DNA of 64,000 bases from Escherichia coli O127:H6 str. E2348/69 (GCF_000026545.1 NC_011601.1), one strand, 5' to 3'. Shown: positions 27,935 through 63,669, counted from the first letter of the stretch. Program-made: numbers and translations. The notes: generated from the letters alone by a model not told the origin.

Positions 27935-27948
27935 TGTGGGGTAGTGTT

Positions 27949-28086
27949 CAATTCTGGGCGGAGTTAGTGCAGCCTGGTAGAACCGGCAAGCCTTGTGTGG
28001 CGCGGGGTGTGGTGATTTAGCGTGATTCTGGGCGGATTTGTGAGAAATGACCAAAAACGCTTTTTTTTGCGCTTTTTTCTGGGCGC
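27949..28086 (+). repeat. Prophage left-end repeats: three direct copies of TTCTGGGCG (candidate transposase-binding sites)
   Basis: Copies at 27952-27960, 28026-28034 and 28077-28085. Confidence 0.5.
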
Positions 28087-28246
28087 TTTTGATCTGGTTC
28101 TGCTACAAACTTAACGGGTTTTAAATGCTTTTAAAAAGAGTTTTATCCTTACCCGTTTTCCTCAATTTGTTCTCATCTGTTGTGTTCAGTTTTGTTGTGG
28201 TTATTGCTGATTAGCTAACAGCACACGCCCCGCCAAAACGAGGCGC

Positions 28247-28894
28247 TTATGCTGATTTCTTGTTTACAGGCTTAGTTTCTTGCTCCGGTGTGACGGGAAC
28301 GCGATCACCTGGTGTTCCAGCACAGAAAATGGCTTTGGCGCGGCGCAAAATCTCTTTGTCATTTTCCTCATCGCCAGCTAATGCCATGCAAACAGCGTCT
28401 TTAAGCGATTGCCTGATGTTCAGGCTTTGAATGGCCTTTCTTTGCTCCTCAAGTTCGCTATCGGCTTGCTTAGTTTGCCTGGTGGGTTGCTGTAGGCGTT
28501 CCAAGATTCCTTTAATGCCCATATCGCATATTGCACTTATCAGCTGTTCCTTATCTTCTGTGGACGCTCTTTTCAATAACTCGTTAACTAGCTCGTTTGT
28601 AATATCGGGAGAAGGCTGCGCTGTTTGATTTGATAGAGAACTTTCTTTGGCGATGGGTTCCTCACCGTAAGCAAGCCAATTTAAGCTCACTTGTTCTTTA
28701 TCTGAGATAAGGCAAGCTATTTTAAAAGAAGGCTCTGTTCCTTTATGAATGTAGTTGTTTAAGGTTGAAGGGGGGATTCCCCAATCACTCGCAGCAGTTC
28801 TGACACTACGGTTACCTATCAGCTTTACTAAACGCTCTCTGAAACTTTCTTTTCCCCGGTCGACAAAAGAAAAAGCATCATCATTTCTAGTCAT
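28247..28894 (-). CDS. Putative prophage repressor (c-like)
   Basis: 215-aa ORF divergent from the ner-A-B operon at the left end, the position of Mu c; N-terminal region looks HTH-like. Functional assignment is positional. Confidence 0.55.
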   Translation of the reverse strand: MTRNDDAFSFVDRGKESFRERLVKLIGNRSVRTAASDWGIPPSTLNNYIHKGTEPSFKIACLISDKEQVSLNWLAYGEEPIAKESSLSNQTAQPSPDITNELVNELLKRASTEDKEQLISAICDMGIKGILERLQQPTRQTKQADSELEEQRKAIQSLNIRQSLKDAVCMALAGDEENDKEILRRAKAIFCAGTPGDRVPVTPEQETKPVNKKSA

Positions 28895-29027
28895 TTTTTC
28901 TTTCCTCTATAACTCATTGATTTTAATTGCAAAAACCATATAAAGACCAAAATCAAAAAGAAAATACAAAGAAAGGGCTATTTTTGCTTTACATGGGCTA
29001 TATATGGATCAATACTTATATCCGAAG

Positions 29028-29049
29028 GGATAACACGGCGGTGTTATCC
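29028..29049. promoter_or_regulatory. Candidate operator: perfect 9-bp inverted repeat in the repressor/ner divergent region
   Basis: ggataacac-ggcg-gtgttatcc, with another GATAAC half-site at 29054-29059, just upstream of the ner start. Confidence 0.4.
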
Positions 29050-29077
29050 GCACAGATAACTTTTAAGGGTAACCTAA

Positions 29078-29313
29078 TGATGGTTAGAAATGAAGTAATG
29101 AACAAAGACTGGCACCGCGAGTACATCGTTGCCGCTGTGCACACCAAAGGTTTTACATTGCGTGAACTTTCTGAACGCGCTGGTCTAAAAAAAGACTCTT
29201 TAAAAAATGCACTGTATCGCTCATGCCCTAAATATGAACGCATCATAGCCGATGCTATTGGTGTGGAACCTGCGGAGATCTGGCCAAGCCGGTATGCCAG
29301 TAAGGCGGCGTAA
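29078..29313 (+). CDS. Ner-like DNA-binding protein
   Basis: 78-aa ORF MMVRNEVMNKDWHREYIVAAV...IWPSRYASKAA; the DWHR and IWPSRY segments parallel Mu Ner as I recall it; the track ORF begins further upstream. Confidence 0.75.
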
Positions 29314-61191: not shown

Positions 61192-61940
61192 TGCAAAATC
61201 TGATGCCCCCGATAAATACACCGGATCAATTGTTTCATGATGGTGACCCCACTCAGGGGATAGAAGGAACCCTCGTGACTGCTGGTTATTTAAACAATCA
61301 GCAGGGGGCAACCCGTGATTTACAGCAGGAACTCCTTAATGTTCTTGGTGGTGCACATATTCAACCTGACCCCAAAAAAACGGATCAGCTACTTACCGCG
61401 CTTCGCGCGTTGCTGTTAAGCCGCAAGAATCCGTTTGGCGATATCAAATTGGACGGCACGGTGCAAAAGGCTCTCGAAAACCTTGGTTTGGGAGAAGGTG
61501 CTCCAGCTATTGGCGTTCCGTTCTTCTGGCCGTCCGCCGCAATGCCAGATACCGTAATCGAAAGCTGGTCCGGCATGGTGTTTTTGAAGTTCAACGGCGC
61601 GAAATTCTCTGCCACTGATTACCCTGTGCTGGCAAAAGTGTTTCCTTCGCTGGTATTACCTGAAGCCCGCGGTGACTTCATTCGTATCTGGGATGATGGG
61701 CGAGGGGCGGACAGTGGGCGAGCATTATTAAGCTGGCAGGCAGCAACATCTTTATCGCAATTTGGTGGTAATTATCCAGAAGGGTCCGGCCATGCGATTG
61801 CTGATTACGATGGAATATCAGCACACGAGCCAGGTTTCTCTCGATTTCAGTACACCAGTAACTCAGTAGGAGATGGTGTTAATTTTGTTGCTGTCAGACC
61901 GCGAAATATTGCATTTAACTTTCTGGTGAGGGCTAAATAA
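61191..61940 (+). CDS. Tail fibre protein S (constant N-terminus fused to G-segment variable part Sv)
   Basis: 249-aa ORF; the left gix site lies inside at codons ~94-102 (ALENLGLGE). Confidence 0.7.
61471..61496. repeat. gix-like recombination site, left (G-segment boundary)
   Basis: ctctcgaaaacc-tt-ggtttgggagaa; inverted partner at 63381-63406 (14-bp perfect core ttggtttgggagaa); hix/gix-like two half-sites around a central dinucleotide. Confidence 0.6.
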
Positions 61941-62533
61941 TGAAACCTGTTTTTGATGAAAATGGACTGGCTACAGTGCCGGGTGATATGCGTTGTTTTT
62001 ATTATGATGCAGTAACGTCTGAATATACGGGCTGGTCTGATGAATATATTAATACTGGCGTAAGTATGCCCGCCTGTTCCACTGGTATTGACCCGGGCGA
62101 AAACATTCCGGGGCAAGTGGCAGTATTCACGGGTAAGGGATGGAGCCATGAAGAGGACCATCGCAATGAGACTGTTTACTCAATCGAAAATGGCGCAGCT
62201 GTTACAGTGGATTATATCGGTGCCATCAAAGACGGTTATGTCACGCTTTCACCGTTAACGCCATACGATAAATGGGATGGTGAGAAATGGGTGACGGATA
62301 CCGAGGCACAGCATAGCGCCGCAGTAGACGCGGCAGAAGCACAGCGCCAGTTGCTGATTGATGCTGCAATGGCTTCCATTAGTCTGACTCAGCTGAAATT
62401 ACAGGCCGGGCGGAAACTGACGCAGGCAGAAACAACCCGGCTTAACGCTGTGCTGGATTACATTGACGCGGTGACGGCAACAGATACCAGCACCGCGCCG
62501 GATATCAATTGGCCTGCTCCCCCGGAGGCGTAG
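61940..62533 (+). CDS. Tail fibre assembly protein U
   Basis: 197-aa ORF directly after S, inside the invertible segment. Confidence 0.7.
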   Translation: MKPVFDENGLATVPGDMRCFYYDAVTSEYTGWSDEYINTGVSMPACSTGIDPGENIPGQVAVFTGKGWSHEEDHRNETVYSIENGAAVTVDYIGAIKDGYVTLSPLTPYDKWDGEKWVTDTEAQHSAAVDAAEAQRQLLIDAAMASISLTQLKLQAGRKLTQAETTRLNAVLDYIDAVTATDTSTAPDINWPAPPEA

Positions 62534-62951
62534 GCCAGACGGGATTTGATGTATCAACGCGCATCAGCAAGACCCGGTATTTTTTCCATTCAGATAACGC
62601 GGCGGTTTCTTCTGCCGTCGCGATTTCCGCATCAAAAGCATCCTGTCTCCAGACTATTTCCTTATCAGCCATAGAACGCAATACCGTTCTTTTCTGTTCA
62701 GCCTGAATAATCTGTTGTTCAGCGGAGAGTGGCGGGATATCAATCCACGCAGGATTACCATTTTTATCAGCCCCCAGCGTTTTGCCTTCTGGCGCTACGC
62801 CTGTGTAAATTGCCATTGTTTCATCATCAACATCAGCGCCATTTTCAGGCCATGAACCGGCGCTGATATATACATCTTTTAGTGCTTCCGGATAGAAAGA
62901 GCCTTTATAAAATTTATTCATTCTTAATACCCCAACGCGATAAAACAACAA
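62505..62951 (-). CDS. Alternative tail fibre assembly protein U'
   Basis: Convergent with U inside the G segment; true start may be the internal MNKFYKGS. Confidence 0.6.
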   Translation of the reverse strand: MLFYRVGVLRMNKFYKGSFYPEALKDVYISAGSWPENGADVDDETMAIYTGVAPEGKTLGADKNGNPAWIDIPPLSAEQQIIQAEQKRTVLRSMADKEIVWRQDAFDAEIATAEETAALSEWKKYRVLLMRVDTSNPVWPTPPGEQAN

Positions 62952-63433
62952 TCTTCGGTGCCCTCTCCGGATGGCGACCAGTTCTGAATACTGATATGCG
63001 TTCTGCTGGCAATACGCACATTCATCGCGGCATTGTAGCCAGATGTTCCACGGTTTCCGGTCGCAAACAAACCTGCATAGGGAAAAGCAAATGGTAAGGC
63101 ATATCCAGCATCAACTCCCTTTTGTGTTGCCACCGTTCCCCACTGCAACATAAGTTGCACCGGGTTTCCTGTCGTCGCAATGCATGGAATGTAGATGTAG
63201 CCATTACCTGACATCATTGACCTGAAGCTGTCTAAATCCAGTAACTTCGAGGCATTATCTGCTCCAACATCTCGTGTTGCAGCGGTCCCTAACTGGAGCG
63301 CATTTCGGAAGGCTGATACATCAGAAATATCAGATCCATTAGCCGATTTCTGCATAGCTCCGGAGGCTTTATCTATCGTTTCTCCCAAACCAACGTTTAT
63401 GAAAATGCAGAAATAACGAGCAAATGGCATCAT
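62924..63433 (-). CDS. Alternative tail fibre variable part S'v (currently not fused to the constant part)
   Basis: 169-aa reverse ORF whose 5' end crosses the right gix site (...NVGLGETIDKAS...), sharing the GLGE junction with S. Confidence 0.6.
   Translation of the reverse strand: MMPFARYFCIFINVGLGETIDKASGAMQKSANGSDISDVSAFRNALQLGTAATRDVGADNASKLLDLDSFRSMMSGNGYIYIPCIATTGNPVQLMLQWGTVATQKGVDAGYALPFAFPYAGLFATGNRGTSGYNAAMNVRIASRTHISIQNWSPSGEGTEDCCFIALGY
63381..63406. repeat. gix-like recombination site, right
   Basis: ttctcccaaacc-aa-cgtttatgaaaa, inverted relative to 61471-61496. Confidence 0.6.
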
Positions 63434-63459
63434 TCCTGCTTTTGTCAGGGTGATCTACC

Positions 63460-63555
63460 ATGTTTATAGGCTATGTACGCGCATCAACAAATGACCAGGA
63501 CACCGATTTACAACGCAATGCGTTGAACTGTGCAGGATATGAGCTGATTTTTTGA
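63460..63555 (+). pseudogene. gin-type serine invertase remnant (31 codons)
   Basis: MFIGYVRASTNDQDTDLQRNALNCAGYELIF* matches the N-terminus of Gin/Hin/Pin invertases including the catalytic Ser9 context, then stops; only about 115 bp remain before the prophage right end. Confidence 0.8.
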
Positions 63556-63590
63556 AGGTAAATCATCAGCATGAGACTAATAATTTAGCG

Positions 63591-63669
63591 TCCAATTCTG
63601 GGCTTTTTGGTTGCGCTCTCTCCGCCCAGAATTGTGCGCCAATTAGCCCAGAAAAAAACGCGAAGTTAC
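63591..63669. repeat. Prophage right-end repeats (TTCTGGGC family, mostly inverted relative to the left end)
   Basis: attctgggc at 63596-63604 (direct), cgcccagaa at 63623-63631 and gcccagaa at 63647-63654 (inverted). Confidence 0.5.

Follow-up and report, generated by a model that had tools for sequence, protein, structure and literature searches.

Target duplications cited for transposable phages measure 5 bp in Mu and 6 bp in B3 (PMC8705779), and the Mu-like prophages of Citrobacter rodentium have been found to transpose experimentally (PMC3072379). Here we describe a prophage of this type in Escherichia coli O127:H6 E2348/69, a sequenced reference strain of enteropathogenic E. coli, contained in a 64,000-nucleotide stretch of the chromosome (the window), whose coordinates, judged from the published position of the regulator gene rnr, fit FM180568 2,688,001-2,752,000. 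The prophage spans 27935-63670 of the window (35,736 bp), has TG...CA ends and interrupts eutC, which encodes the ethanolamine ammonia-lyase light chain. Its sequence supports a real, nearly intact Mu-type transposable prophage, and we consider it very likely that a temperate Mu-type myovirus genome entered the E2348/69 chromosome by DDE transposition and not by site-specific integration. An earlier inspection of the window (the sequence-only reading) had proposed a Mu-like transposable prophage. That proposal is upheld by the paired MuA- and MuB-like proteins, the termini, the flanking duplication, the empty site, the variety of occupied loci, the gene order and the genome size.

The prophage itself is ordinary and already annotated, its Mu-type genes being named in RefSeq and Mu-like prophages being on record for E. 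coli and C. rodentium, and wider interest is limited to the 4-bp duplication, an orphaned invertible segment and the location of rnr inside a prophage. Literature searches returned nothing relevant that describes this prophage of E2348/69. The 2009 genome paper by Iguchi reportedly lists a Mu-like prophage.

Insertion into eutC and position of the ends

RefSeq annotates eutC as two pseudogene halves, at 27507-27944 and 63661-64134 on the minus strand, the second of which runs past the end of the window; about 55 phage genes lie between them in its annotation of the identical E2348/69 sequence. Positions 27500-31500 are 100% identical to three E2348/69 assemblies. When the flanks were rejoined with a single CACT, the resulting 400 nt aligned gap-free with an intact eutC in 5380 of 5426 complete genomes. 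Because the prophage splits eutC, the prediction is that E2348/69 cannot catabolise ethanolamine, which serves as a nutrient and a signal in the gut. The insertion also cuts eutL, eutK and eutR off from the rest of the operon, and eutA, just past the window end, is likewise marked as truncated by RefSeq.

The ends were delimited by a junction alignment of the E2348/69 copy with six related copies from other E. coli genomes. These sit between trg and ydcA, between melR and melA, between yfcC and pta, and in an RHS gene, a PAAR toxin gene and a TonB-dependent receptor gene. All seven copies start with TGTGGGGTAGTG and end with CGCGAAGTTACA, and their flanking direct repeats are cact, tttg, gaga, gaca, cttc, agta and catt, giving a 4-bp target duplication in every one of these independent copies. 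A fifth base matches in three of the seven, as chance predicts, and is mismatched in four. In E2348/69 the two copies of CACT occupy 27931-27934, within eutC, and 63671-63674.

The sequence-only reading had instead placed the element at 27935-63669 between 5-bp duplications, acact, and one alternative holds on this basis that the element is a close relative of Mu or D108. Five identical bases do stand on both sides of the E2348/69 copy, and Mu makes 5-bp duplications (PMC8705779). However, the A at 63670 belongs to the phage, which ends in this base (...GTTACA) in 7/7 copies, and acact is seen in E2348/69 because the host base preceding CACT happens to be A, like that last phage base. Moreover, the outermost end sites, L1 and R1, lie at an equal distance from the TG/CA termini, with a start exactly 17 nt in, only if the right end is taken as 63670. 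Close kinship to Mu is also at odds with the comparisons: the best phage record covers at most 3% of the first 20 kb, the transposase is 21% identical to MuA, and 18 of 54 proteins match Mu, at 24-43% identity. We therefore regard a close Mu relative with a 5-bp scar as very improbable; its 5-bp version is refuted by the multi-copy junction comparison. The start at 27935 stands, and the right end moves by one base to 63670.

Repeated motifs at both ends had also been noticed, and these proved to be three sites at each end. The left end (attL, 27935-28085, plus strand) comprises the TG terminus and three direct TTCTGGGCG sites, L1 at +17, L2 at +91 and L3 at +142 nt from the terminus, an arrangement kept in seven copies. 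The right end (attR, 63596-63670, minus strand) comprises the CA terminus with R1 at +17 and R2 at +39 (22 bp further in), both directed inward, and R3 at +66 (63596-63604) in inverted orientation. The motif TTCTGGGC[G/T] occurs six times in the 64 kb, always in the element ends, no more than 151 bp from the left terminus or 75 bp from the right one; shuffled sequences contained it 1.24 times on average, and none of 100 shuffles reached six. In E2348/69 the termini and all six sites are intact and equal to those of the other copies, save for one non-motif base near L1. By their position, the TTCTGGGCG-type end sites are putative transposase-binding sites.

For two Sp18-like Mu phages, GenBank depositors annotated a 4-bp 'duplication due to insertion'; in the literature searched, we found no paper that connects 'Mu-like' and a 4-bp duplication. 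Transposable prophages are usually delimited by a "5-bp scar" rule, which is corrected by the exact ends and the 4-bp duplication found here; these also indicate a MuA-family clade whose target cuts are spaced differently.

Transposition and regulatory genes

The transposase (29313-31355, plus strand, 680 aa) was assigned to the MuA family of DDE transposases by Pfam, PHROG and BLASTP. It carries the Pfam domains HTH_Tnp_Mu_1 (3.8e-10), rve (2.2e-4) and Mu-transpos_C (6.1e-16), and its PHROG match has an E-value of 4e-195; RefSeq labels it a "Mu transposase C-terminal domain" protein. BLASTP aligned it with MuA at 21% identity over 616 aa, pairing D308 and D374 with MuA D269 and D336. The third catalytic residue is probably E414 (GVIERA), given the likeness of its surroundings to PVERA of MuA. 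Directly downstream lies a MuB-like AAA+ transposition ATPase (31374-32267, plus strand; phrog_296, 'DNA transposition protein', 1e-104), which is 32% identical to MuB over 72% of its length.

Upstream, a Ner-like DNA-binding protein (29077-29313, plus strand) with 43% identity to Mu Ner is separated from a divergently oriented repressor gene (28247-28894, minus strand; phrog_3037, 4.5e-58) by a regulatory region at 28895-29076. Pattern matches in this region point to an early promoter candidate and to recurring operator-like sites, TATCCG..GATAAC. The 215-aa repressor contains a CI-type helix-turn-helix, and no peptidase or LexA-like cleavage domain was detected in it, so induction with mitomycin C may be uninformative.

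About 20 small early genes, GemA/gp16 included, lie between the ATPase and the activator of the Mor/C family. The first of them encodes a Kil-like protein (32282-32506, plus strand; phrog_2679, 5.7e-35), the next is a small open reading frame (ORF; 32519-32734, plus strand) in which a 1-nt deletion leaves 36 codons in place of the 71 aa found in relatives, and a third encodes a DUF3164 protein (32763-33407, plus strand; RefSeq annotation, PHROG). Downstream of rnr, which is considered below, the early genes at 33623-38163 encode DUF2786, DUF4752, Ea22-like and GemA/gp16 proteins, together with several without an assigned function; all are on the plus strand except one (33955-34173, minus strand). 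The Mor/C-family transcription activator (38264-38731, plus strand; phrog_836, 3.5e-42) is the only one of its family in the element. Promoter and terminator scans of the element gave results at chance level.

By analogy with Mu, the transposase would bind the three TTCTGGGCG-type sites at each end and cut at the TG/CA termini, and, together with the MuB-like ATPase, would join them to target DNA whose two strands are cut 4 bp apart. The CACT duplication in eutC would be the product of repair at this stagger. In the lysogen, again by analogy with Mu, the CI-type repressor, encoded divergently from the ner-A-B early operon, would silence the phage.

A site-specific integrating prophage or an integrative island, with its integrase encoded outside the window, would offer a different route into eutC. 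The sequence-only reading had seen no integrase, and RefSeq indeed annotates none within the element; tRNAs and Rfam families were not found there either. Nothing was found that speaks for such a route, the 'integrase'-labelled genes of relatives being tail-fibre genes. Against it stand the insertion within the eutC coding sequence, which is intragenic and involves neither a tRNA nor an att-type repeat, the position of relatives at many unrelated loci, and the presence of the MuA/MuB pair. Its probability is in our view close to nil, and site-specific integration is refuted by the varied insertion sites, leaving DDE transposition as the preferred account.

An invertible tail-fibre segment with a lost invertase

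The right part of the element carries a segment of the Din type. A plus-strand region at 61191-62533 encodes the tail fibre (249 aa, with a constant N-terminus and a variable C-terminus) and its assembly protein, while an alternative assembly gene and an alternative fibre C-terminus lie on the minus strand at 62505-63433. Two 26-bp sites of the TTNTCNNAAACC-NN-GGTTT type, which resemble Mu gix, are placed in inverted orientation to each other, the left one (61471-61496) within the tail-fibre gene and the right one at 63380-63405. In-silico inversion between them replaces the present 249-aa fibre with an open fibre of 253 aa. Both orientations occur naturally, as strain tcmA_3 carries the segment in the inverted state with 99.7% identity.

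The adjacent invertase gene, of the Gin/Pin type, is reduced to a remnant (63460-63570, plus strand) of 31 codons with a frameshift, the rest of the gene being deleted. The element thus has the inverted 26-bp sites flanking alternative fibre modules that characterise the Din family and lacks a functional invertase next to them. The same stub is present in the related copies L002-L005, that is, in five module-bearing copies including that of E2348/69. Since these four relatives occupy other loci, loss of the invertase predates the spread of the lineage. Inversion must depend on an invertase encoded elsewhere, the one in cis being a dead remnant. The E2348/69 chromosome contains two other places with likeness to the 5' end of the invertase, and these could supply the enzyme in trans.

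In several relatives, the NCBI annotation pipeline (PGAP) calls the tail-fibre gene 'integrase' (L002 34281-35048, L004 34405-35043, L005 2183-2944). This label is a misannotation, and it could make Mu-like elements look as if they bore an integrase.

Relatives and mobility of the lineage

The A-B genes of the lineage, at a nucleotide identity of at least 88%, were found at 61 places in 58 of the 5426 genomes; two of these places are on plasmids. An exact-protein look-up added eight further left junctions at other loci, one of these copies lying inside another prophage. In all, related copies in other E. coli genomes occupy more than 14 different loci. The lineage moved after it had lost the invertase, since copies that share the remnant occupy different loci. 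Beyond E. coli, a contig scan revealed relatives of the transposase with 27-61% identity in Serratia, Yersinia, Pantoea, Klebsiella, Morganella and other genera, the best (61%) in Serratia among species-representative genomes; the best match among phage records reached 49%. C. rodentium, whose genome lies outside the collections searched, was not among the matches.

The E2348/69 copy could nevertheless be Mu-like by descent and by now a fixed, non-mobile resident that neither transposes nor forms infective virions, perhaps kept for rnr or other accessory genes. Such a history would suit its occurrence in three independent E2348/69 assemblies at one and the same place, the partial decay visible in the invertase remnant and the frameshifted early ORF, and the host-level regulatory phenotype of rnr (PMC10148876). 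Yet all genes for transposition, regulation, lysis, head and tail are equal in length to those of relatives inserted elsewhere, the termini and six end sites are intact apart from the single base near L1, and the phage was not immobilised by loss of the invertase, which is older than the spread of the lineage to several loci. We hold a fixed resident to be possible and rather doubtful.

The preferred account, a nearly intact Mu-type transposable prophage, must itself be set against several observations. The occurrence of one copy at one site in all three E2348/69 assemblies counts against it, as do its two decayed genes, the invertase and the small early ORF at 32519-32734. The 4-bp duplication departs from the lengths cited for Mu and B3 (PMC8705779). 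BLASTP did not align E414 with MuA E392, so that this residue is assigned by motif resemblance, and the roles proposed for the end repeats, the operator-like sites and the central non-coding gap (see below) derive from position and analogy. Read from the sequence alone, the core genes of the E2348/69 copy appear intact and two accessory genes have decayed. The earlier statement that the structural and transposition ORFs are open accordingly holds; the invertase, with its 31-codon remnant, and one frameshifted early ORF are not open.

The regulator gene rnr is part of the early operon

In E2348/69, rnr was profiled as a repressor of the LEE (locus of enterocyte effacement), bfp and per genes, and its deletion (Rodriguez-Valverde et al.) led to about 500 differentially expressed genes with de-repression of the LEE (PMC10148876). 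The word "prophage" is absent from that 2023 study. In the window, rnr (E2348C_2635), which encodes an ANR-family regulator of 77 aa, occupies 33409-33642 on the plus strand; adding 42 x 64,000 (2,688,000) to these positions gives the published locus, FM180568 2,721,409-2,721,642, which is 234 bp long in both. The protein matches NCBIfam NF033650 with 56.9 bits, above the cut-off of 32. Its start codon abuts the stop codon of the DUF3164 gene inside the early operon, and no separate rnr promoter stands out in the promoter scan, whose result is at chance level.

A homologue in C. rodentium, ROD_02851, was placed in a 'predicted phage-encoded region' in 2014 (PMC4038620); locus-tag numbering indicates that it probably belongs to the Mu-like prophage CRP28. 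The position of rnr as a prophage early gene bears on its expression and on possible polar or prophage-mediated effects.

Taken jointly, these features would allow a more speculative proposal, which we put forward as tentative, namely that this E. coli clade departs from the Mu paradigm in three linked ways concerning stagger, invertase and Rnr. A diverged MuA-type transpososome would cut the target at a 4-bp instead of a 5-bp stagger; the phage would have given up its own Gin and have its tail fibres switched by invertases of co-resident prophages; and derepression of the prophage would be coupled, via Rnr from the early operon, to repression of LEE type III secretion in enteropathogenic E. 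coli. If this were true, Rnr, known as an 'antivirulence regulator', would serve the phage first and foremost, as an early function that is perhaps aimed at H-NS. No description of these three linked departures was found in the literature searched.

Late genes and accessory functions

The late genes follow the order known from Mu. The sequence-only reading had listed this order from the repressor to the invertible tail fibres, and RefSeq annotation together with PHROG, Pfam and NCBIfam matches bears it out. On the plus strand, a lysis cassette (39219-40605) with two holins, a GH108 endolysin and a small ORF is followed by a DUF1804 DNA-binding protein (40832-41332) at the position of Mu gp27, the small terminase. 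The terminase large subunit, the Mu-type (DUF935) portal, an F-like head protein and a G-like virion morphogenesis protein are encoded at 42121-47061 (plus strand); the protease/scaffold (I), the major head protein (gpT) and head-tail joining proteins at 47271-51321 (plus strand); and the contractile tail, with sheath, tube, chaperones, tape measure, N-like DNA circularisation protein and baseplate, at 51314-61191 (plus strand). RefSeq labels among these include "Mu-like prophage major head subunit gpT" and "DNA circularization protein".

Between the DUF1804 gene and the terminase lies an accessory N6/N4 DNA methyltransferase gene (41379-42119, plus strand; PHROG, NCBIfam), which is present in some relatives and absent from tcmA_3, STEC346, L037, L041 and L042. 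This patchy presence points to an accessory gene that counters restriction.

The non-coding gap between G and I (47062-47270) is syntenic with the Mu strong gyrase site. Within it lies a short TTTTTAAAA..TTTAAAAA palindrome (TTTTTAAAAGGGTTTTAAAAA) that also occurs in the same gap of Mu, Klebsiella phage ST405-OXA48phi1.1 and Pseudomonas phage VW-6B. Over its whole length the gap resembles the Mu strong gyrase site region weakly, with 55% column identity and the short A/T palindrome alone in common. By position and analogy, the gap is a candidate counterpart of the Mu strong gyrase site, and only a candidate.

Neighbouring loci in the window

Two further insertions lie to the left of the prophage. 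An insertion of about 5.9 kb between hemF and eutR (19312-25148) encodes a hypothetical protein, a 1148-aa SNF2-related protein, a DUF1963 protein and a small hypothetical protein. The C-terminal half of the SNF2-related protein resembles the helicase domains of ZorD/DpdE; no complete known defence system was recognised in this insertion, for which PADLOC gave generic SNF2 helicase-domain matches only. An IS4-like ISEc13 transposase gene is located between cysP and ucpA (9802-11175, plus strand).

Comparison with known transposable phages and inversion systems

A whole-genome alignment to Mu and related phages had been suggested as a check. Compared with phage genomes including Mu, the element DNA showed no similarity to Mu, and the best record covered 3% of the first 20 kb; megablast of this region returned short mosaic pieces only, such as Ea22-like segments. 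At the protein level (tblastn, 54 proteins), 18 proteins matched Mu, 20 an Sp18-like phage, 17 VW-6B and 32 ST405-OXA48phi1.1. Because of the low DNA coverage, the 18 distant protein matches and the 21% identity of the A protein, the element does not belong to the genus Muvirus, which unites Mu with close relatives such as D108 and SfMu. As far as its sequence tells, it is a Mu-type phage of which Mu is a distant relative.

With Mu (NC_000929) the element shares the gene order from the repressor to the invertible fibres, a genome of about 36 kb, TG...CA ends and three sites per end. It also has MuA-type domains, a MuB-like partner, Ner, Kil, GemA, a Mor-family activator, an N-like protein and the non-coding G-I gap. 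In Mu, as reportedly described by Craigie, Mizuuchi and Mizuuchi in 1984, L1 stands away from L2 and L3, and R1-R3 lie close together; the layout of the element mirrors this, with L1 set apart and the right sites packed. In contrast to Mu, the element shows no nucleotide similarity, encodes a transposase of low identity and makes a 4-bp duplication. Its repressor is of the CI type, it has one activator of the Mor/C family where Mu has two, and its gin is a remnant. The element contains no com/mom and carries the separate N6/N4 methyltransferase instead, and none of its proteins matched the Mu lysis genes in tblastn.

The tail-fibre region resembles the Din-family segments of Mu (G), P1 (C) and e14 (P) in having inverted 26-bp sites, a constant fibre N-terminus outside and two sets of C-terminus and assembly genes inside. 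Unlike in those systems, the adjacent invertase is a non-functional stub in all five module-bearing copies.

By description, the element is similar to CRP28, CRP49 and CRP99 of C. rodentium, Mu-like prophages of an attaching-effacing pathogen for which transposition to many sites was demonstrated by experiment (PMC3072379). With the Sp18-like phages of Shiga toxin-producing E. coli (insertions LC727881 and LC727895; PMC10132054) it shares the E. coli host, variable chromosomal or prophage sites, a Mu-like organisation and an annotated 4-bp duplication, whereas its transposase is 44% identical to theirs and the 20 of 54 matching proteins show mostly 25-53% identity. Sp18-like Mu phages lying inside Stx phages (L006 1674-41649, L044 3090-42434) have annotated 4-bp duplications and, in one case, a terminus TA, not CA.

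The closest deposited phage record is Klebsiella phage ST405-OXA48phi1.1 (MK388859). It differs from the element in host genus and in its lysis, fibre and accessory genes, and rnr/ANR has no match there. In contrast, 32 of the 54 proteins match collinearly at 34-71% identity, among them A, B, DUF3164, GemA, Mor, DUF1804, the terminase and the whole head-tail set, and the motif of the central gap is shared as well.

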